From the NCBI GenBank assembly GCA_026026165.1, contig JAPEUD010000050.1, positions 172,281 through 192,280 of the forward strand: DNA of 20,000 nt. Direction: 5' to 3'. Below the pieces are notes generated by a model, which worked only from the letters and a program-made list of their open reading frames with translations, did no database searches and was not told where the DNA came from. Both the position numbers and the translations under genes were made by a program. How positions within the stretch are numbered: position 1 is the first letter of the stretch; the number at the start of each line of letters is the position of its first letter. This DNA is from Sarea resinae. Lineage: Eukaryota. Of this stretch, positions 3,001-19,116 are shown in pieces.

Positions 3001-3488
3001 ATATCCCCACGACTTGGAAACGGACTCGAGTTGGTCCGCGCGGAACCTGAACGCACGGAGAGGCACTGGAATTACACTGCGGACTCAGATATACCGGTGC
3101 ATGGACGAGATATACGCATGTGGGATGCATCCTGCATACTCCGGTACTAGCCCTAGAGAGCTGGGCATGCCGCGCTTGACGTAACTGGTGAGATAATACC
3201 CTGTGGCCCCTGTGGGCCTGCCTCTTTCAGCCTGTCCGTTTGCTGGCATCGTCAAATGCGCATAATCATGGCCTTAGTCCTTCAAAACCAGTCTTTCGCT
3301 ACATACTTCCTCCATCTTTATCATTTCCCTAGAGTTTCCCCCATCATTATCATCACTTCTGCACCAGCCGAATCGTAAACTTCAGGCCTCGCCGGGAGGA
3401 GATTCACGACTCGCGAAGCTGGGAGCGTTCTCAGACCCGTTTCACGAGGCAACACAGACCTTGAATAAGACGCCCTCCCCATCTCAAG

Positions 3489-5864
3489 ATGGCCCCACGA
3501 ATCCCCCGGCGGTTTTTCAAGCCGCTCCTCTACACCTCTGGTGCGGCCGCAATGGGCGGTGGGCTGCTATATATCCAATGGAGACCGCGAGAGATCAAGG
3601 GAGGCGAACCTGCCGCGGTCCCACCTCCTGGTTACGGAGCAGGAGGAACATTCGTGCCTCCACACTTCCCACTGGTAAAGTCTCGGGAGGAGCAAATAGC
3701 GGATCTCAAGCGGTCAGGAGGAGTCAAGCAGACCGTTGAGAAGGCCAAGGATGGCATTAATGGCATATCCGAAGGCATCTCAGAATGGCTGGGCGTCAAA
3801 GGAGACGAAACTTATGACGTTGCTGACGAGGATGGTGCTGAACCGTATGATCTTTTGATCATTGGCGCTGGCGCAACCGGCTCGGGCATTGCTCTCGATG
3901 CAGCGACCAGAGGCCTCAAGGTTGCTGTAGTCGAGCGAGATGATTTCAGCAGCGGCACGAGCAGTAAGAGCACAAAGTTGGTACATGGTGGTGTAAGATA
4001 TCTTGAGAAAGCCGTTTTCGAGCTCGACTATAACCAGTAAGCCGATAATTTGCGTTGAACGCATTTCCATCTCATGACTGATTATGTGACATAGATATTC
4101 CCTCGTCAAAGAGGCATTACGAGAGCGGAAGTATTTCCTGGATACTGCTCCGCATCTATCGAACTGGTTGCCCATCATGGTCCCCATCGACAAGTGGTAC
4201 AAAGCACCATACTTTTGGACTGGTACAAAGTTTTACGACTACCTTGCTGGATCGGAAAATATTGAGAGTTCTTATTTCCTGACCAGAAGCAAGGCTCTTG
4301 ATGCCTTTCCGATGTTAAAGAAGGAAGGCTTATTTGGCGCTCTTATATACTATGGTACGTTTGGCCGCATCAGACAAACTTTTCGAAGCTGACTGTTGAA
4401 GATGGCGCGCACAATGATTCGCGAATGAATGTCTCCCTAGCAATGACTTCTGCGCTCTACGGTGCCACTGTGGTCAACCACATTGAAGTGACAGGGCTGG
4501 AAAAGGATGCGTCCGGAAAACTGAGTGGTGCACGAGTGAAGGATCTCGTGACGGAAAAGAATGGAAGGACGCCCAAGGAGTTCAGTATCAAGGCAAAGGG
4601 CATAATCAACGCCACAGGTCCATTTACCGACTCGATCAGGAAGATGGACGACCAAGCGGTCCCTGAGATTGTTGCCCCTAGTTCGGGAGTACATATCATC
4701 TTGCCGGGATATTTCAGTCCATCTAGTATGGGCTTGATTGATCCCTCAACATCCGATGGCCGTGTCATTTTCTTCCTCCCATGGCAGGGTAACACGATCG
4801 CCGGAACTACCGATGCGCCGACCAAAATCAGTCAAAATCCTGTGGCTGGGGAAGAGGAAATCGAGTGGATTCTCAAAGAAATACGTGGCTACCTCGCTCC
4901 TGATATAACCGTTCGACGAGGAGATGTCCTAGCAGCCTGGTCCGGAATCAGACCTTTGGTCCGTGACCCTAATGCGAAGAATACGCAGTCTCTTGTTCGA
5001 AACCATTTGATTACCGTGTCGGATTCAGGCCTGATGACTTGCGCTGGTGGTAAATGGACCACTTACCGCCAGATGTCCGAAGAAACGGTTGATGAGGCAA
5101 TCAAGTACTTTGGTCTCCGTACAAGGGCTATTACGGATCCGCCAAATGTGAGCGGCATGGGATTTGCCAACGACGAAGCGATTCTGGATGGATCATGCCA
5201 GACGCATCGCGTCCGGCTTGTCGGTGCACACGGCTTCTCTAGGACTCTGTTCATCAACTTGATACAGCACTTTGGCATTGAGACGGATGTTGCAAAACAC
5301 TTGACGGAGTCTTATGGTGACCGTGCCTGGACCGTTGCTTCCCTATCATCGCCAACGGATAAACATTTCCCTGTTCGAGGTATCCGTCTTTCTCCTCTTT
5401 ACCCTTTCATCGATGGGGAGATTCGTTACGCGGTCCGTCATGAATATGCCCAGACTGCAGTTGATGTCTTGGCTCGACGGACGAGACTTGCTTTCTTGAA
5501 TGCACAGGGGGCATTGGAAGCCTTACCGTCGGTCATTGATGTCATGGCGGAAGAGCTGCACTGGGACAAGAAGAGAAAAGATGTCGAGTGGAAGGAAACG
5601 ATCAATTTCTTGGGCTCGATGGGCTTGCCACAGAGCAAGCTTGGTCTCTCCCGAAAGCAGGTTGAGAGTGGCATCTTGAGCAAATTCCTGGCGAAGGAGG
5701 ATAACACGTACGCTAGGCATGGTAAGCTGTAACGCCCCACCTCGTCGAATATATCGAGCTAAATTTTCCATCTAGATTCCCCGGCTGATACTCTGGAGAG
5801 TGACTCAAAGTTCGAATCGGGGCAAAACCCCGTAGTTGGGACCGAGTCTCCTGTAAACAAATAG
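3489..5864 (+). CDS. GUT2: Mitochondrial FAD-dependent glycerol-3-phosphate dehydrogenase, 738 aa; exons 3489-4036, 4095-4354, 4402-5721, 5776-5864
   Basis: FAD-binding motif [23 protein letters not shown], plus [54 protein letters not shown] and [12 protein letters not shown]. The N-terminus is Arg-rich with a hydrophobic segment, resembling a mitochondrial targeting sequence and anchor. Introns 4037-4094 (gtaagc..tag), 4355-4401 (gtacgt..gctgac..aag) and 5722-5775 (gtaagc..tag) join the exons in frame, 2217 nt in total. Confidence 0.95.
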
Positions 5865-6500: not shown

Positions 6501-7062
6501 ATGTAGAGGAGAGGAGAGCAGGTACTGCGCTGTGACACGCCTAACGAGAAAGGGAAATGGGGGTGAAAAGATGATGGCAAAGAGCTTTCCCATCCAAACC
6601 TTAAGGGGGAATCTCCGAGGTGGACCTATTCCATAGCGCAGACTCTTCCATCTCACTCTGCCGGACCGTATGCTCTAAGGTAGATGCGAGCCTAGCCGGC
6701 CATGCTGCTACGGCTCCATCCCCTCGTTGCCCTGGACTCCTGGGCTCGGGCCAGGCAAGGCTTGCCGACCAGACTGTCTCAATGCTCGGCCCCGATGATC
6801 GCTTTTCTTCGCCATGGCAGACGTCGGCGTGCTAGCAGCAGGCTTTCTAGGAGATGAGAATCGAGGGCGATGGCTGTCTCTACCGGCTTCCTTTTCTACT
6901 CCTTCTTCTCCTTCTTTCTTCATCATCGTTGTCATCTCTGTAATTTTACCCTTGGAAGTGGCAAAATCTATTTTGCTGTCATGCTGAAAAGCGTCAGCTT
7001 ATCACGTCCTGGACGATCATCATGACTTGACTCTGCTCATCTCTATTGAAGCTGGAAGAAGC

Positions 7063-9800
7063 ATGTCTGGCACGGGCGCCCATGCCGCGAACAGAGGTCC
7101 AGCTGTCATTGGTGTGACGACTGCCACGATTGCCGCCGCTACTATATTCGTCTTCCTCCGCCTATGCTCTCGTGCGTTCATTGTTAAGAGGATCTCATGG
7201 GACGATTACGCCATCTTGGTAGCATGGGTCTGCATCTCGCTGGTCCGCATCAGGGTTTTGCTAATTGAGCCCTAGATTGTCTGCCTCGGCTTTTCCTTCG
7301 TCATCTGCTATGCCACCTCTGTTGGCTTAGGTCGTCATGAAAAAGCCGTACCAGCAGACTCGGAGCCAGCTCTGAGAAAGGCCGAGTTCGCCATCTCGAT
7401 TCTCTACGTATGAGTCCCATTCTGGATATCGTCGTCTTAGCTAATCTGATCAGAACCCGGCTTTGATGTCAACGAAGACCTCTGTACTGCTATTCTACCT
7501 TAGCCTATCTAAAAATGATCCAGTCTTTCGATGGGAGTCCCTGATCACTCTCATTGTTGTGAACGTTGCTGGATTAGCTCTGACCTTGCTCAATGCCTTC
7601 CAATGCCGTCCGGTCAGGGCAGCATTCCAGTATCCAACCTCCGCCACGGCACACTGCACTGATGTTGTTGTACTCTACCTCTCGTCAGCCCCGGTCAACA
7701 TTCTTACGGATATGGCTATATTTTTCATCCCGCTGCCGATCCTGACATCTATGCGTCTACCTCGAAAACAAAAGATCATCTTGATCATCACTTTTGGCGT
7801 TGTGGCATTCGTTGGCGTTGTTGATGTCATTCGAGTTGGATTCCTCCAGCAAGCATTCTCAGCTCGTCTGGAGGAGAGCCGGACTGGCAATCGCCTTTAT
7901 AGCGACGATCCTGCCAGTTTGACGGACTTCTCCTGTATGTTAGATTCCTTGCCTTCGAGCACTTCCACTGATACGCTTAGGGTACGGGTCATACTCATTC
8001 ATGTGGTCGGCTATTGAGGCAAACGTTGGACTCCTTATTGCCAACGTCCCAGGCCTCAAACCACTCGTGTTTCGTTTCATGCCACAAATTCTCCGCGATA
8101 CTACCCAAGATAGCGACGGCACGGGAACTAGGTCCTCTGAAGCTCAGAATCAAGCCTTAGCTGAGGCACCAGCACAGCGGTTACCTTCGGTTGCCGAGCC
8201 TCTACGCCGACCTCTCACTGGAAATAATGAGCAAATCAACGTCCTAGATTTTTTAACGACTCCAGATATGGCCTCAGCAAGTCCGGACGTGGCACTAGAT
8301 AACCCAAGAAGCCGAACTGCTACCACCGTTACCCACAGTACCAAGGCCGAGGGTGCTACGTCCTTTGATTTCGTCAATATCAAAAATCCGAAAAGTATGG
8401 TGAAGATGAACGCTAAGGAATCACTATTCCCGGTGGGTATCATAACGATCATCTTCTTTCTATGGGGCTTCGCCTACGGATTACTTCAAGTTCTGAACAT
8501 GCAGTTTCAATCTCTCGAGGGTTTAAGCACCGGCCAAACCTATGGTCTCCACAGTATATACTTCGGAGCTTATCTTATTGGACCACTCACTCTGGGACGA
8601 TATACACTCAAAAAATGGGGTTTCAAAGTGACTTTTATCGGTGGCTTGGCTATATACAGCTGTGGTACTCTTATCTTCTGGCCATCGGCAGTGCTGACCT
8701 CCTTTGCTGCATTCATGGTATCTAATTTTGTTGTCGGATTTGGCCTCTCTATTTTAGAAACTGCCGCAAATCCATTCATAGCTCTCTGTGGGCCTCCAGA
8801 GTATGCGGAGGTTCGTCTCAACTTCGCACAAGGCATTCAGGGGATTGGTAGTTTGGTATCCCAAATTCTTGCTCAGAGAGTGTTCTTCCGGACTGCCACC
8901 GGACCCGATTCTCTTACAGACGCTCAGTGGACCTACCTTGGTATTGCGCTATTCGTCAACTTGCTTGCCCTTGCCATCTACTACATTCCTTTACCAGAAG
9001 TCTCTGACAGCGATCTCAGGGAGCTTGCATGGAAGCAGCAGTCTGAAAAGCCCATCAAGATTGGCGGAATATCTATCGTGAATATCACCCTGGCTCTAGG
9101 TGTCTTCTCTCAATTCTGTCTTATTGGTGCGCAAGAGACAATCTCCGTTTCTTTCAATACCTTTATAGGTGCGATGCATCCTAGGTAAGCTCAACTTCCC
9201 TCTGTTACAACCTTCTGCTCACGAAAAAGCCCCACGCCTCTATCAGACTCAGATTACCTAGCCCTAGGGCACACGACATTTGCTGTTGGCCGTTTCGTTG
9301 CTATGGGGGCCTGCTTCGTGATCAAACCGCGTTGGGTCCTGCTTTTCTTCTACATTGGAGGAGTTGTCACATCAGCGCTGACGATGACCTATACGGGAGA
9401 CACCGGCATAGCAATGCTTATCCTGGTTTTCTTCTTCGAGGTGTGTGTACCAAGCTGCACTCGCGAACAGTACTAACCTTTCCAGTCCGCCATCTTCCCT
9501 ACCTTGTTCGCTATATGCCTGCGCGGGCTCGGCGCCCGGACAAAGACTGCTGCAGCCCTTCTGACCGCCGCCGTCTGCTCAGGCGCAATCTTTCCTCCCG
9601 TCGCAAACCCCATAGCAGAAAACCGAGGACCACTGTACTCCTTTTGTATTGTCGTTGCTCTTTTCTCTTTTGGATCCATCTTTCCAGCTTATCTGAATCT
9701 CGTTCCTGCGGCAAAGAAGCATGTCGATCCAGTGTCGGAGGACACAAATGCCCTCTTTGAACAAAGCTGGCCCGGCCACCGCGAAGTTCCCCATCAATGA
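7063..9800 (+). CDS. Fusion protein, 835 aa: N-terminal Pth11-like 7-TM domain, Ser/Thr-rich linker, C-terminal FucP-like (L-fucose/glucose-galactose permease) 12-TM MFS domain; exons 7063-7227, 7276-7407, 7454-7934, 7981-9184, 9230-9440, 9486-9800
   Basis: Pth11-like motifs: FLRLCSR, WDDY, GLGRH, KTSVLLFYL, FQCRP, NILTD..IFFIPLP, LPRKQK, WSAIEANVG..ANVP. FucP motifs: FFLWGFAYGLL, YFGAY, GLSILETAANPFI, RLNFAQG, QFC.IGAQ, FAVGRF, FESAIFPTLF. Five introns of 45-48 nt have branch points (ctaat, ctaat, ctgat, ctcac, tactaac) and give 2508 nt in frame. The domain junction lies inside exon 4. Confidence 0.88.
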
Positions 9801-11128
9801 GAATTTCGACATATACTAGCGACTGTATAATTGGTTAACAAGAATGGGAGGCGAATTAGGTGTTTTGTTATTTTCCCTTCTGGGCTGTTGCATTTTGGCG
9901 CGGAGTCTAGCATTTGGAGCTTTATATCTGATACTCAGCCCGGGTAGCACAGAACCGGCATTACAGGGTGTTGGAAAATTTCGCAATTCCATCACCCTCG
10001 TACACAATTGTCTAGGCATTTTTCATTGTCATCAACGGTCATGTTGAGTGCTGTAGTAGATTCTTCTCATACAGTAGCAATAGTTAATCATCAGACGAAT
10101 CTCATGTCAAAAGGGAATCTAGTTGATGGTTTGAGTTCTGTTGCCTTTCCTGATAGCACAAAGTACCACGTTGTCTTCATCACGAATAATCCAAGAAGCT
10201 CAATCTTCTACGAAAGGTGAGAATATGGGGCTATGGGTATACTGACAGGACTGGTCGACCAATCGCCCTCCAACGAGTTTCGACACACGCGTTCATCGAA
10301 CGACTCAAATAGTACCTGGAAGCTTCGATCATGACGCCTTCATGAGCTGCTCTCTAGACCAACCTCCATCGAACGTCTCAAGCATCAGAAGCGTCTCGGG
10401 GCCACGCCTTGTCGAGAGTCTTGGTATTGGAGAACGCAGCCCGAGCAGTGGCTTTGGCTTTCGAGCACCAACACCGCCGCTCCTGATCGTAACTCTACAG
10501 TACCCCGCCTCCTAGGTACGAAGTACAGTACGGAGTCTGAAGATTAAGAGCGAATTCTCCCAACCCAACCTTTCTCTGCCACCGTCACCGACATCTCAAT
10601 CGTACAGTAAGGCAGGTAAAGTAAGCTCCAGACCACAGTCTCGCCCGCCTTCGTCCGAGTCCCATCCATCAATGCTTTTACTACAACTAGAGACGCACGA
10701 CTGACGCAGAGGATCGCGGGGTCGTCGGCCGCGGAGGGGTACAGCTGAGCGGGGTACGCGGCCGAGTCCAGCGTGTGTTAGGTGGGGCACTGTCCAATTT
10801 ACCTCGTAGTACTTCGTACTCTACTCCGATAGTCACTTAACTCTAGAGAGACTGAGGACAGCGTATCGCCATGTTTGGGCTCTGGGGCAGCAGTGGCAGG
10901 CTTGAGCGCGAGCGTGAGGACCGGGGGAGACAGACTCCTTGCCTGCCATTGCCATTGCCATTCCTCGTACGAGAAATGCTTTCGTGGTCCGGCCCCGCGG
11001 TCTACTCATAGTACTTCATTCGACGGAGTACTTCGTACCAAGGTCACTTTACCCACCGAAACGTGTGGAAGGGTACACGATACGCCCCCGGACTTAACGG
11101 GAGATAATGACGTTCGACTCTGCACCCT

Positions 11129-11216: not shown

Positions 11217-11253
11217 TCAGCATCGGAAACCTGTCAGCATCGGAAACCTGTCA
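11217..11253. repeat. Perfect 17-bp tandem duplication (TCAGCATCGGAAACCTG x2 plus TCA) in the AKR 5' leader
   Basis: Copies at 11217-11233 and 11234-11250, with the partial third copy ending just before ATG 11256. Confidence 0.9.
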
Positions 11254-12726: not shown

Positions 12727-13081
12727 CCTACCTCACGATGCAGCCCCGAGGCGATGTAGTTTCGGGAAAATAATATTCCGGCCCATGTATCCCGTCAGGT
12801 CCTGGATCGTCCGTCCCAGCAGATTCGATGGATCTGAGATGGCGAGGGAGTACAGCATATACATAGTAGAGTGACTGTCTGCGTGGTGGATGAATTCGAG
12901 GACGGGGGCCCGTGGGGATGGAAGATATATTGAAGCAAATGATGGCAATCATCGATTCCGGCCTGACAACGTGATGTCGACCAGAGGCGTTGATGGATCC
13001 GGATCATTGATCACGGATCGATCTACGGCGGAGAATAAATATGCAAGGACGGCTGGCAGCACGGGTGGTCGCGCGACGGCC

Positions 13082-13090
13082 ATTGGCGGA
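13082..13090 (-). promoter_or_regulatory. Putative galacturonic-acid-responsive element (GARE, TCCNCCAAT) upstream of the repressor gene
   Basis: The + strand reads ATTGGCGGA, the reverse complement of TCCGCCAAT, about 495 bp upstream of ATG 13586. Confidence 0.5.
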
Positions 13091-13179
13091 GAAATATCGA
13101 AGGGGGGTGCCGCGAAGGGAAAGACAGGCGAAGAGTGGCCGATCTCCGTCCGTGTCGGCAATTTGGCGATGGGATGGGT

Positions 13180-13209
13180 GAGGGAGAGGGAGAGAGGGAG
13201 AGGGAGGAG
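13180..13209. repeat. GA-rich purine microsatellite
   Basis: The stretch reads gagggagaggggagagagggagagggaggag. Confidence 0.7.
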
Positions 13210-13398
13210 CTACGCAGGTCAAGCTAGGGAATTCATCATCATAATCTCCCTCATCCGCCCCCTCCCCATTGCCTCCACGCCGACCGAGACCGTATTATTG
13301 TCGACCATCATACGGAAAAAGCTACCAGCCACTTCCGATAGATCATCCGCTCGCTGGCCTTTGCGGGGAAAGGAAAGACAGAAAGAAACACCTCAAAG

Positions 13399-13450
13399 CC
13401 CTTTCGCCTTCTCAGCCTCCCTTCTCCCTCTTTCTTCTTCTCTTGCTCCG
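13399..13450 (+). promoter_or_regulatory. CT-rich (pyrimidine) core-promoter tract upstream of the repressor gene
   Basis: The tract ccctttcgccttctcagcctcccttctccctctttcttcttctcttgctccg lies 135-190 bp before ATG 13586. Such CT boxes commonly precede fungal transcription starts. Confidence 0.4.
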
Positions 13451-13585
13451 CCCAATCAACCTAGCGATGAGCTATCTCGTTGCGCATTCCCGTCAGCTGA
13501 ACACCTCGCGCCGTGTTCTCTCCGAGCTTCAACACCGGATCAACGGCTTCAACATCTACGGCTGAGCGCCTTGCTCCCACGACCG

Positions 13586-15646
13586 ATGACCGTACTGGAC
13601 GAAAAGCATTCCATTGCTTCTATTATGCGAAATGAACCCTCGCCGACCGACTGCCAGGTAGACTCTGGGACCGGAAGGAAGCCCGACCACCGCGCCGTTG
13701 TCGTCGTCTATGAGGATGGCCAAGAGGATATCATAGCTCTGGTGGCCGACGTCTTGGGGAAGCCGTCGCAGCTTGTGTCGACGATATCGGCGACGGAGGA
13801 GACAGGAAGCCCGGCCGTGTTCGGGATTGCGGGTGAATGCGCCAAAGACGGCCTGAGGGGACGAGCGAAAGACGTAGTCGTCGTTATCAATACTCGATGT
13901 ATGGATGCGCGCAATATTTCCGACAAGACTCTCTCCGACGAATGCGATTACGAGTTCCTGTATACGCATACGCCTTTCTTGCGAAGGGACCTGACGCGCT
14001 TTCTCTCCTTTGTCCTGGGGCAAAAGAATCATCACGATGACCTGTTGAAAAAGTCCAGAACGTCTTTCATCTCTACGACATTCCCTGATGTGCGCACAGC
14101 ATTATCCAATCTCGACATCCTTTCCGTCGGCTCGGATGCCGTGGAGATCAGGGTCGACCTGCTCCGAGAGCCCAAATGCGATGGCACCTTTAGTGCAGTG
14201 CCGAGCTTGGAGTACGTTGGAGAACAGGTCATGCTGCTTCGACAGCGTTCCGAACTCCCAATTATATTTACTACGAGGTGCACCAAAGAGAACGGTCGAT
14301 TTCCTATGGATAACCCAACCCTATACTATGACTATTTATACAAAGCTCTGCAGTGGGGATGCGAATACATTGATGTCGAATTGTGGCTGCCCGAGGATAT
14401 TAGGATGCGCCTGGCGGAGCAGAAGGGCTACAGCAAGATCATCTCCGCTTTCCATGACTTTTCAGGGAATTGGAAATGGTCGTCTCCAGAAGCACAGAGG
14501 ATCTTCAAAGAGCTAGCGAAATATGGCGATATCGCGAAGATGATTGCGCTAATCACGTCGATGAGTGAGAATTACGAGCTGGAGCTGTTCCGATCTGGCA
14601 TCAAGTCCAATTACGCTCATCCTCCCCTATCTGCCGTCAATATGGGTCCCATGGGACAAATGTCTCGAGCTCTCAATTATTTCTTCACGCCGGTCACACA
14701 TCCTCTCCTACCGATGATAGCCGCGCCAGGACAGCTGAGTGCAGCAGAGATCAACGATGCTCTCCGCATCATGGGCCAAATTCCCAAGCGAGATATCTTC
14801 GCCATAGGGACTTCTAGACCTACGCCTCAATCCGTGTTCTTTGAAAAGTGCTTCAACGAGCTGGGCGTACCGCACAGTTTCGCGTGCGTCGACCGCGGCC
14901 CAAAGGGTTCAGTGGAGGCTATCATCAAGAAACCTAACTTTGGCGGCGCCTACCTCAATCCACCACTGAGCAGTTCTTCCGCTCCTTATTTGCCTTCTTT
15001 AAGTAATGCTGCACGGTCTATCGGTCACATAGATACCATTACCATTCATGGCGATGAATGCGAGCAATGTCCCTCTCTGACTGGCCACAATGCCTCCTGG
15101 AAAGGTATCCGCGCGACGCTCACGAGAGACTTCGTCCCTTCGGCGTATCGAGGCCGGGCAGCGCTCGTCCTATCCAGCTCCGAAGTTGACGCTTCGGCGG
15201 CAATCTTTGCCCTGCAAGATCTCGCGGTTCAGCCCATTTACACGATCGGATTCAAGGCTCAGGGACCCTTGGCATCGATGTCGGCACTGGAACCATTGAC
15301 TTCTGTTGAAGATGCCTCAAAGATTGAACAGCCCTTTGCGCTCGTCTCGGCCCTACCGCCAGAGAAGTCCCATTTCGCAGTTCCTTTACTCAAATTCTTT
15401 AGTCAAACTAGTGGCAAGGCGCGCTCGCCCTCCCCTTCGGAGAAAATGACGGGAAGAGTCTTTGTAAATCTCGCGAAGGGATCGAGTAAGGGGGACCCCG
15501 GAGCTGTTGCTGCAACTACGGGCTGGACTGTGTATGGGAGCGACGAAGTGAGCGCTTGGACGACGGTCGAGATGATGAGGTTGTTGGTCGGGCAGAATGT
15601 GCCGTGGGATTTTGTGCGCATGGCTTCGGGAAGGTGCCTTTATTGA
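13586..15646 (+). CDS. gaaX: AROM-derived repressor-type protein (degenerate shikimate-kinase-like region, type I 3-dehydroquinase domain, degenerate shikimate dehydrogenase domain), 686 aa, intronless; probable GaaX orthologue
   Basis: Type I DHQase motifs AVEIRVD, PIIFTTR..ENG, YIDVEL, ISAFHDF, DIAK, NMGPMGQMSR and AAPGQL, followed by an SDH-like region (FGGAYLNPP, IGHIDT, GHNASWKGI). The domain order matches the C-terminal half of AROM, as in QutR/QA-1S, GaaX and TanX. It lies next to a Zn2Cys6 gene and has a GARE upstream. The start is set at the ATG after a CT-rich tract. The family call is strong; the gaaX orthology is inferred. Confidence 0.75.
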   Translation: MTVLDEKHSIASIMRNEPSPTDCQVDSGTGRKPDHRAVVVVYEDGQEDIIALVADVLGKPSQLVSTISATEETGSPAVFGIAGECAKDGLRGRAKDVVVVINTRCMDARNISDKTLSDECDYEFLYTHTPFLRRDLTRFLSFVLGQKNHHDDLLKKSRTSFISTTFPDVRTALSNLDILSVGSDAVEIRVDLLREPKCDGTFSAVPSLEYVGEQVMLLRQRSELPIIFTTRCTKENGRFPMDNPTLYYDYLYKALQWGCEYIDVELWLPEDIRMRLAEQKGYSKIISAFHDFSGNWKWSSPEAQRIFKELAKYGDIAKMIALITSMSENYELELFRSGIKSNYAHPPLSAVNMGPMGQMSRALNYFFTPVTHPLLPMIAAPGQLSAAEINDALRIMGQIPKRDIFAIGTSRPTPQSVFFEKCFNELGVPHSFACVDRGPKGSVEAIIKKPNFGGAYLNPPLSSSSAPYLPSLSNAARSIGHIDTITIHGDECEQCPSLTGHNASWKGIRATLTRDFVPSAYRGRAALVLSSSEVDASAAIFALQDLAVQPIYTIGFKAQGPLASMSALEPLTSVEDASKIEQPFALVSALPPEKSHFAVPLLKFFSQTSGKARSPSPSEKMTGRVFVNLAKGSSKGDPGAVAATTGWTVYGSDEVSAWTTVEMMRLLVGQNVPWDFVRMASGRCLY

Positions 15647-16410: not shown

Positions 16411-19116
16411 ATGTCGAGCTCGCAGGTCGGTATTGAGCGGCTGCCAGCTCGATCGATGAGCAACGAACCCCGCGAATCGATGAACTGCAAGTCGTGTCGC
16501 AAGCGAAAGGTAAGAACGGGACCCTGCAGCAGCTGCCAAGGCGACTCGTCGCACGACGGCAAAGAGAGAGAGATTTGATCATTGACATCTCATCCAAGAT
16601 CAAATGCAATCGAATCCGGCCAGCCTGCAAGGCGTGCCAGGTCTTTGGCTGCTCGTGCATCTATGGTACGCATAAACACGTGCACCTTTCCATGTTCGGC
16701 ATCTCGACACCTCGACACGCCATGCTCATCCTCTTCCAGATGCCGTGCCGAAGAAACGAGGCCCGAAGACGGACGTGCTCGAGGCACTGTTGAAACGGGT
16801 CGACGGGCTCGAGAAGCGGCTACAAGAAGAGACGAAATCAGATGGACCGGGCGTTGGCGCCAGTGGGACAGCGAACGTCTCACCCAAGTCGGAAGATGTG
16901 GTTTCACAGCCAAGGGTGCAACATGGCCTGCCTGCTGAGAGCTTTCCTCTTCAGGCAAACCCTAAACAAAGGTGCGAATAAATCTTCATGTTGGCGATGG
17001 ATAGATGGATCTCCGAACTGATGGCCTTTCGTAGCGAGGATCCGAATACCAGCTCGGATATATCGCCGGACGACCTCTTTGATTCGTACTTTTCACACTT
17101 GCACGGGAAGCCATTGTACATTTTAGACGAACGGGTGGTCCGACAAGGCCATCAAACAAAACAGCTGCCATCTTGTCTTGCAATGGCCATCTATGCTCTC
17201 GGCGCACGGTGAGTAGAAGACGTTCATGGACGGAGCTTGACTGACATGTCCAGCTATGCCATGCATCCTGGAGGATATAGTGCCGCAGAGAGACTAAGCA
17301 GAGATTACGCACTGAGAGCGCGAAGCGAATTAGACCTGGATGATCCGACCATCGATAACCTACAGACTGCTCTCCTACTATCACTTACTTTCTTCGCCAT
17401 TGGACTGTGTAAAAAGGCATACATGGTGTTCGGTAGGTTTTGCTCTTTGGCCCAGTCAATGACCTCCACTGATAGACTCTAGCTACCGCTGCGGGAATGG
17501 CGATTGCGCTTGAACTCCATCGCGAGGTCTCTCCCAAAGCCGCAATGAATCCGACCGAGCGAGAGCTCCGACGAAATCTTTTCTGGGCGTGCTATACCAT
17601 GGATCGATTTCTGGCATGTGGTTCTAAAAGGCCCTCGTTGCTCGCCGACGAATCTATCACCCTGAGATTACCGACGTGGACACCCCATCCGACGGCCAGA
17701 CCTGTTGAGGGGGAGGTATTTTCAAACGGATCGAACCTTCAGTACTACTCCGCCTCCGGTAGAAAAGGACAAGGAGCTACTGGAATGCTTATCGACATCG
17801 TTCGGATTCTAGGCATTACGAATCGATACCTTGCCGCAGGAGGCGTGAAGGGGGACTCCCATTTTCCCTGGCATTCCCTCTCGAACCTCTCGAAAATAAG
17901 ACAAGATCTGGACCTCTGGGCGTCTGGGACCCAGGACATGTTCAGCTCTGTCGAAGCGTTGTTTGGCCAGGGGCAAAGCACCGTCCTGGTTTTCAGCAAA
18001 CTGATATACCATCTCATCCATTGTCTCATATACCGGCCTTTTCTCCCCATCGATCTAGCCGAGCTTTCGGGGACAGGGGAGCACCAGTCCTGGCAAATCG
18101 AAGCGACGAATCTATGTTTTCTTCATGCTAATGCCATCGCCGAGCTTGTGGAACTTGGCCGTAGCTCTCCAACAGTCGAATGGCCGTCCTTTGTTGGATA
18201 CTGCATCTTTACTGCCGCGACCGTGCACGTGCACGGAGCATGCTATCGTGGAGTGTCCAGCGAAGTTTTTACTTCTAGCAGCGAATTCTTAGGACGAGAA
18301 ATGAATCTGCTGTCGGAATTGGGGTGTCTGTGGCGCGGGGTGCGGCATCAAGGTACCACGCTGCAGAAGATATATGACTGCCATTCGCATATGGTCAAGA
18401 CACTGGCGAGCAATTCGATGCGCTTCTCCCCAATCTTCCATCTCGAAGACTTCTTTGAACGATATCCCGGCCAAGTCATTTGCGCGAGCCATTTAGAGCT
18501 GAGGGATGTGCAGGATGGAGATGGACAATTGGACGGATCTGGCCCGTATGCTGCAGTGGGGGTGGTTGGCGCTCCTTTGCAGCAGCAGCAGCAGCAGATA
18601 GGTGGTCCACTGTCATTCGATCCATCAATCATAGGCATCCAAGCCGGGCCTTCTCAACCAAACTCGATGCAGCCGCCTACTACGCAAGTTCGAAACGATG
18701 ACGACTCCAATTCCAACTCCAATGGCCCGTTTCAGCTAGACCAGGCATACAGCAGCAACGAGATGGCACCTCCCCAACCATTCTCACCTAGCTTTGACTT
18801 CTCACTGCCTTCAGGCTCTGCGGAGCCCCAAGGATCGTTCGACCCGATTTTTGGCATCTCCACCCCGTCTGCTACCTCGGCTCTCACCTTTGGCCAGCCG
18901 TCTAATTCGTCGACCTCGACGCAAGCCCAAGCCTCTTCAGCCAACACGACGTCGCCCAACGCTACCACGACCAGCACCAGCAACACGGACACAGACCTCG
19001 ACGGCACCGGCACCGGCGACCCTTTTCTTTCGCTGCTCGAGCAGCTGGCCGAGAACGAGTATTCTCAGGGTGAAGGGCCGAGCGAGTTGGACTTCTTCCT
19101 CGGCGGCCAGGAGTAG
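16411..19116 (+). CDS. gaaR: Zn(II)2Cys6 transcription factor with fungal-specific middle-homology domain and acidic C-terminal tail, 794 aa (alternative starts 16456 or 16480); probable GaaR/PDR-2 orthologue; exons 16411-16509, 16599-16665, 16740-16971, 17035-17208, 17254-17432, 17483-19116
   Basis: The spliced Zn cluster reads [28 protein letters not shown], followed by KKRGPK (NLS-like) and a coiled coil [15 protein letters not shown]. The middle domain has [22 protein letters not shown] and [17 protein letters not shown]. The tail is [20 protein letters not shown]. Five introns give 2385 nt in frame. The gaaR identity is inferred from adjacency to the AROM-like repressor and the GARE sites, not from an alignment. 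Confidence 0.75.
18580..18597 (+). repeat. (CAG)6 polyglutamine tract within the transcription factor
   Basis: Six consecutive CAG codons give QQQQQQ. Confidence 0.9.

Follow-up and report, generated by a model that had tools for sequence, protein, structure and literature searches.

Repeated change at the FucP Asp46 site in fungal fusions of a Pth11-like receptor domain and a FucP-type carrier

Introduction

Asp46, in the first transmembrane helix (TM1) of Escherichia coli FucP, is the proton site of this transporter, as stated in the original prediction on the locus described here and confirmed by the accessible parts of PMC4882079, PMC3824880 and PMC8784342. A stretch of 20,000 nucleotides from Sarea resinae (contig JAPEUD010000050.1, positions 172,281 to 192,280 of the forward strand; hereafter the window) contains a gene that joins a Pth11-like seven-helix receptor domain to a FucP-type carrier, and in which glutamine is read where FucP has this aspartate. 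The locus thus raises the question of whether loss of the carboxylate goes with the fusion, and of what a carrier half lacking it would do. The fusion is already visible in automatic annotations. No paper dealing with it or with its Asp46 site was found in our literature search, mention in supplements or subscription papers being possible, and term look-up in the accessible parts of PMC12842992, PMC6459559 and PMC5425790 returned no mention of the fusion or the site.

Results

Gene structure and fusion architecture

The five GT-AG introns of the gene (Table 1) measure 45-48 nt each, and the spliced model, open over 835 residues, agrees letter for letter with database protein P0001. Intron 1 is removed in one RNA contig, and a second RNA contig, with 11 differences, spans the 3' end; the RNA run contains only 5% of the words, the Gln429 codon lying outside its coverage. 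A public DNA contig is identical over 7000-9900 (0 differences, depth 355), although the sequence may derive from this very contig, which is hence not independent.

The receptor domain (PF20684) scored 105.7 bits against a cut-off of 27. A single open frame (7944-9188) takes in the last helix of the receptor, the linker and the N-terminal half of the MFS domain, so that the fusion does not depend on any doubtful splice between the domains; in addition, both Pfam domains are present in 120 of 120 longer homologues among the matches listed. The AlphaFold model (mean pLDDT 85.1, pTM 0.85) shows 12 MFS helices at residues 404-811 and an intact 19-helix fusion overall. Although 98 residues fall below pLDDT 50, the whole-chain pTM reaches this height, a hint that the receptor and carrier halves may be packed together. 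A CFEM domain was also looked for, with no match in the exon pieces scanned.

Table 1. Features of the fusion gene and of its neighbours, in window coordinates. Fractions refer to the close fused and the stand-alone homologues described in the text.
Feature	Position	Strand	Basis or remark
Fusion gene, six exons, 835-aa product: Pth11-like 7TM + FucP-type MFS (12TM)	7063..9800	+	
Exons of the fusion gene	7063-7227, 7276-7407, 7454-7934, 7981-9184, 9230-9440, 9486-9800	+	GT-AG introns, open frame
Pth11-like Fung_rhodopsin domain, about residues 12-295	7096..8087	+	PF20684 E 3.5e-30 on exon 3 alone; helices in AlphaFold model
Low-confidence linker, about 100 residues	8088..8411	+	pLDDT <50 at 309-389; same exon as last receptor helix and MFS N-half
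FucP/FHS-type MFS domain, residues 404-811	8412..9725	+	PF07690 (MFS_1, exon 4); TIGR00885; best fold match 3o7p
Gln429 (CAA) at FucP Asp46, TM1	8487..8489	+	Reading frame; phmmer and HMM alignments
His450 (FucP Gln67, TM2)	8550..8552	+	His in 237/240 close fused; Gln in 125/130 stand-alone
Asn508 (FucP Leu124, TM4)	8724..8726	+	Asn in 240/240 close fused; M/T/I/L in 129/130 stand-alone
Glu519 (GAA) = FucP Glu135, TM4	8757..8759	+	Glu in 240/240 close fused, 129/130 stand-alone
Leu640 at FucP Tyr270, TM7	9120..9122	+	Tyr in 238/239 other close fused, 129/130 stand-alone
Glu645 (FucP Thr275, TM7)	9135..9137	+	Glu in 239/240 close fused; 0/130 stand-alone (Val in 125)
His675 (FucP Met305, TM8)	9270..9272	+	His in 128/135 close fused with the column; Gln in 127/129 stand-alone
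Glu731 (FucP Met361, TM10)	9438..9440	+	Glu in 134/134 close fused, 126/127 stand-alone; common to both groups
FAD glycerol-3-phosphate dehydrogenase-like gene	3465-5860		Pfam
Single-exon type I dehydroquinase-domain protein	12875-15646		Pfam
Fungal transcription factor domain	17476-19116		Pfam

Glutamine at the Asp46 site

The original prediction had placed Gln at the Asp46 position and a conserved Glu at that of Glu135, and had read TM7 as QFCLIGAQ against QFCYVGAQ in FucP; all of this was borne out. The frame from 8463 reads W-G-F-A-Y-G-L-L-Q, ending in the CAA codon, and further on E-T-A-A-N-P-F, beginning with the GAA codon. TM1 was aligned without gaps to the FucP PDB chains 3o7q/3o7p by phmmer (E 2.8e-24), with W421=W38, Q429=D46 and E519=E135, and the identical mapping, together with L640=Y270 and Q644=Q274, emerged when FucP, as translated from the MG1655 record, was aligned by HMM. 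In the AlphaFold model TM1 forms one unbroken helix (404-439), and the top PDB matches of the model in Foldseek were 3o7p and 3o7q, that is, FucP itself (E 2.8e-13; TMt 0.80 for 3o7p). The prediction had also considered that a structure-based alignment might bring another acid to the Asp46 site. As TM1 is ungapped against the crystal chains and no second Asp or Glu was found at residues 422-434 of the Sarea protein, misalignment or a shifted TM1 acid is ruled out as the cause of Gln429. Leu640, for its part, is private to the Sarea protein among its close relatives.

Asp46 is lost in part of the fused but in none of the sampled stand-alone eukaryote-type homologues

Homologue sets, all of them top hits of similarity searches, were then compared at the Asp46 column. 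In the 120 closest fused proteins, among which is that of Sarea, the column reads D 84 times, Q 21, A 7, S 5 and N 3. Another 120 hits are shorter, and 104 of these show part of the receptor domain; D stands at the column in 104 of this second set, and Asp is thus found in 188 of 240 close fused relatives. Among 76 receptor-bearing representatives (50% clustering) the count becomes D 15, N 31, G 12, S 9, T 5 and other 4. Among the stand-alone hits, which are for the most part named proteins of fungi, D is found in 120/120, the stand-alone profile having been built from 9 rows of which none is non-D at this column.

A FastTree tree was calculated for 471 of 510 sequences, 39 being dropped because the column was absent or fewer than 230 columns were covered. 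Asp occupies the site in 131/131 rows outside the fused clade (E. coli FucP included) versus 211/340 inside; restricted to the eukaryote-type homologues sampled, it is lost in 0/130 stand-alone proteins versus 129/340 members of the fused clade. Support for the fused-clade node is weak (0.047) owing to two stand-alone rows that adjoin it, the node above being supported at 1.0. The receptor domain was detected in 295 of the 340 rows, with D in 189 of these 295, and many of the remaining 45 resemble partial gene calls. The expectation that loss of Asp46 tracks the fusion consequently stands only in part: among the eukaryote-type homologues sampled, loss is confined to the fused clade, but it is not fixed there. 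For the same reason, Gln as a marker of the fusion was rejected, Asp being kept in 84 of the 120 closest fused hits.

Other features of this column and its surroundings may be recorded here. A large Asn-bearing fusion branch (P0258, P0278, P0286 and their tree neighbours) includes proteins of Halenospora, Pseudogymnoascus and Chaetomium, and a separate fusion branch has mostly Gly at the column; the Asp46 equivalent may be absent from whole fusion lineages. Moreover, 22 of 120 fused relatives, e.g., P0017, have Glu at W+3 in TM1 (8472-8474, Ala424 in Sarea), mostly alongside Asp.

The site has moved from invariant to ordinary

For a controlled comparison, 130 stand-alone and 240 close fused rows were used, with mean pairwise identities of 63% and 64% and tree lengths of 21.7 and 32.9, respectively. 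On the stand-alone tree 24 of 404 columns never change, and the Asp46 column tops these, with 25 parsimony changes among the close fused rows, 21 of which are between D and non-D; the three columns that follow show swaps among mostly hydrophobic residues. Fourteen of the 24 are also unchanged among the fused rows, including those of R154, Q274 and R312; these three and E135 show 0 changes on both trees (one Gly among stand-alone proteins for E135). At the fused rate, about 16 changes at Asp46 would be expected on the stand-alone tree, against 0 observed (rough Poisson 7e-8). Since the average column changes 22.5 times among the close fused rows, the 25 changes at the Asp46 site indicate that it has passed from invariant to ordinary.

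The Gln of the Sarea protein is separate from a 20-member Gln clade, and its sister, P0006, has D; a single Gln lineage was rejected by an AU test in which both Gln groups were joined (p 1e-28, 18 rows). As reconstructed on the tree, the Sarea Gln is one of some 20 or more independent losses of Asp46, and no special event. The non-Asp close relatives keep E519 in 52/52 cases. The mean number of departures at conserved columns is 0.69 in members without Asp, versus 1.26 in Asp-bearing members, a figure biased by near-identical non-Asp sets. General decay was rejected as the class-level cause of Asp loss, because members without Asp are no more degraded than those with it.

Titratable residues gained by the fused clade, and bacterial family members

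The fused clade is near-fixed for four polar residues, His450, Asn508, Glu645 and His675, which are almost absent from stand-alone members (Table 1). Both histidines stand for Gln, and they occupy comparable positions, one in TM2 and the other in TM8. Close members lacking Asp keep His450 (52/52), Glu645 (52/52) and His675 (39/39), which could carry protons in place of Asp46. The residues fixed in the fused clade may either take over as a proton site or form a new pocket for a ligand.

Stand-alone members of the family in bacteria were represented by 31 distinct proteins from profile searches that did not require Asp, 30 of which could be aligned. D was found in 17/30 and another residue in 13/30 (G 5, S 4, P 2, N 2, no Q); of these 13, 8 have Glu at the Q274 column in TM7 and 2 have Asp elsewhere in TM1. 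Two further bacterial sets, with Asp in 54/54 and 78/78 aligned rows (unaligned 5/59 and 2/80), carry little weight, the former consisting of close enterobacterial kin and the latter having been found by a pattern containing Asp. The original prediction would have been contradicted if stand-alone active symporters commonly had Q or N at this site; the 130 stand-alone eukaryote-type proteins all have Asp, and the bacterial sample contains two with N among its 13 members without Asp. Two bacterial FucP-like proteins (L157 and L160) have their TM1 Asp at W+5 or W+7, not at W+8.

Discussion

Family membership and closest systems

Several FHS profiles matched the MFS half (TIGR00885, E 1.4e-43; gluP, E 2.6e-29; NagP, E 6.3e-20). 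With TIGR00885, the FucP equivalog, the Sarea protein scored 149.6 bits, under the cut-off of 280.4, as did the stand-alone fungal protein P0319 (220.5). By its fold and by the profiles, the carrier half is a member of the FHS family, but it fails the FucP equivalog on score, on Asp46 and on Tyr365. This last residue, the partner of Glu135 in FucP, is Phe735 in the fusion and also Phe in 120/120 stand-alone fungal hits, which means that the FucP mechanism cannot be transferred unchanged.

E. coli FucP (TC 2.A.1.7; PDB 3O7Q/3O7P) is the best sequence and fold match of the MFS half. The equivalents of W38, E135, N139, R154, Q159, Q267, Q274, F308 and R312 are common to both, whereas the fusion differs by D46->Gln, Y270->Leu, W278->Ser, Y365->Phe, T275->Glu and M361->Glu, and by its extra 7TM domain. 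Stand-alone fungal FHS permeases belong to the same family, and on the tree no outgroup is nearer to the fused domain; they share with it the TM10 Glu and the Phe at 365, but the stand-alone hits all have Asp and almost wholly lack His450, Glu645 and His675. Pth11-like receptors (PF20684) match the N-terminal half, and differ from the fusion in the whole MFS domain at the C-terminus of the latter. In the yeast sugar sensors Snf3 and Rgt2, an MFS sugar-carrier fold has been put to sensing; these proteins are members of the sugar porter family and signal via a cytoplasmic tail, without a fused 7TM domain. The architecture of the fusion also recalls human LYCHOS/GPR155, a transporter-GPCR hybrid according to the accessible part of PMC11525196, with no homology implied; LYCHOS has a PIN-type transporter and a class B2-like GPCR, and its domains stand in another order.

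Within the FHS family, A. niger RhtA and N. crassa FRT-1 are stand-alone permeases for rhamnose/fucose uptake, as far as the accessible parts of PMC5161314 and PMC10774165 go; proton coupling of RhtA is not described, nor CCCP mentioned, in that part of PMC5161314. Magnaporthe Pams1 was considered as a studied orthologue and ruled out, being a 727-aa MFS protein of 14 helices in the accessible part of PMC9500233. The Neurospora "fucose permease" NCU04310, of 1050 aa and twice the length of its family-mates in the supplement of PMC10774165, may be the fusion, judging by length only.

Coupling and the function of the MFS half

The consequences of neutralizing Asp46 have been described for FucP. 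In the accessible part of PMC8784342, the D46N variant shows no steady proton translocation but retains fucose-specific binding currents, and in that of PMC5770559 neutral Asp46 variants are exchange-only, not uniporters, as are neutral variants of LacY and XylE; in GLUT uniporters, the residue found at the analogous position of TM1 is neutral. That work also presents the proton site as necessary, not sufficient, for symport, so that Asp-bearing members of the fusion need not be symporters. A single-site swap does not account for symporter versus uniporter in XylE/GLUT1 in the accessible part of PMC5491310.

Our preferred reading, to which we give about an even chance, is that the MFS half would serve a putative transceptor as a module that binds sugar and is either uncoupled or exchange-only. 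In filamentous ascomycetes, a FucP-type permease would have been joined to a seven-helix domain of the Pth11-like type, after which selection on the TM1 carboxylate would have been released, with the residues of the sugar cavity and of gating staying fixed. What is observed is the pattern of residues and the repeated changes that the tree shows; from these we infer that the MFS half may bind sugar and change shape without Asp46-driven symport, acting as a carrier that is loosely coupled or capable of exchange only. More tentatively, this change of shape might be passed on to the receptor half, presumably packed against the carrier, which would make the protein a sugar transceptor. The original prediction had proposed an uncoupled uniporter or a non-transporting sensor. 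Its sensor arm, extended to an exchanger, is favoured over the uniporter by the exchange-only behavior of neutral FucP variants (PMC5770559, accessible part), whereas its step from a missing Asp46 to an uncoupled carrier is weakened by the three conserved titratable residues gained in the fused clade, by the frequency of stand-alone bacterial members without Asp, and by the Phe that even stand-alone fungal members have in place of Tyr365, a residue of the published FucP mechanism. The transceptor reading itself is tempered by the persistence of Asp in most close fused relatives.

These same residues bear on a different possibility, which we regard as rather unlikely, namely that the MFS half is a rewired symporter or a pH-gated module in which protons pass via Glu645 (TM7) and His675 (TM8) of the C-bundle, perhaps with His450 or Glu731, making Asp46 redundant. 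Besides the fixation of three titratable residues, nearly absent from stand-alone proteins, Glu645 and His675 co-occur in the 340-row clade (both in 160 rows, neither in 20, Glu only in 32, His only in 1, uncorrected for kinship), and the Glu of 8 of the 13 bacterial non-Asp proteins lies just one column earlier in TM7. Nevertheless, divergent fused members lose these residues more where Asp is lost (His450 present in 76/129 non-Asp versus 205/211 Asp rows), bacteria often have the TM7 Glu together with Asp, and the trio could equally shape a new ligand pocket. It is quite improbable, in our view, that the protein is a plain facilitated-diffusion sugar carrier for uptake with an independent receptor half, even though it retains its cavity residues and the full 12 helices and may be the sole FucP-type carrier of its genome, in which a search for a stand-alone FucP-type gene gave, among the top candidates scored, nothing beyond a weak 27% match (L156). 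Fungi usually import dilute sugars by proton symport, and the model hints that both halves may pack together. The neutral TM1 site of GLUT uniporters would suit such a carrier, while the exchange-only FucP, LacY and XylE variants argue against it (PMC5770559, accessible part).

There remains the case of the Sarea protein itself, in which Gln could be one of several mildly harmful changes in a drifting domain, with little functional meaning. Among 120 proteins, that of Sarea is joint highest in departures from highly conserved columns (7 of 94, Tyr270->Leu included), 47 of the 120 having 0; its end branch is long (0.91 vs a median of 0.15), and each of its halves ranks with the ten of the 120 that least resemble the consensus. 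However, the frame is intact through six exons, intron 1 is spliced in RNA, and the same site has been lost about 21 times in close relatives with an otherwise intact scaffold, so that a species-level accident cannot explain the class pattern, though it may still add to the Sarea case. As an account of the Gln, such lineage-specific erosion is improbable.

Returning to the putative transceptor, a more specific and more doubtful version, rather less likely than not, would be a conserved 19-helix transporter-GPCR hybrid of filamentous ascomycetes in parallel to LYCHOS, whose FucP-derived half acts as an allosteric sugar (or sugar and pH) sensor, the Asp46 switch having been repeatedly lost and the His/Glu/His set defining the sensing site.

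Significance and neighbouring loci

The single Gln is of modest interest, being one case of a pattern; it is the clade-wide release of a proton site that is the useful result. We know of no ligand for most Pth11-like receptors, and one that carries an attached sugar-carrier domain makes the ligand question testable; if the sensor reading were true, an orphan receptor of this type would have gained a built-in ligand-binding module. In addition, nature offers the site with Asp, Asn, Ser, Ala, Gly or Gln, the scaffold being otherwise intact, and these variants provide a ready series for following the path from symporter to uncoupled carrier or sensor.

Around the fusion gene, Pfam searches identified three further genes listed in Table 1, among which the dehydroquinase-domain protein presumably resembles quinate repressors. 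Finally, an exact 17-bp tandem duplication (11218-11251) is found immediately upstream of the start codon (ATG) in an aldo-keto reductase gene, also assigned by Pfam.
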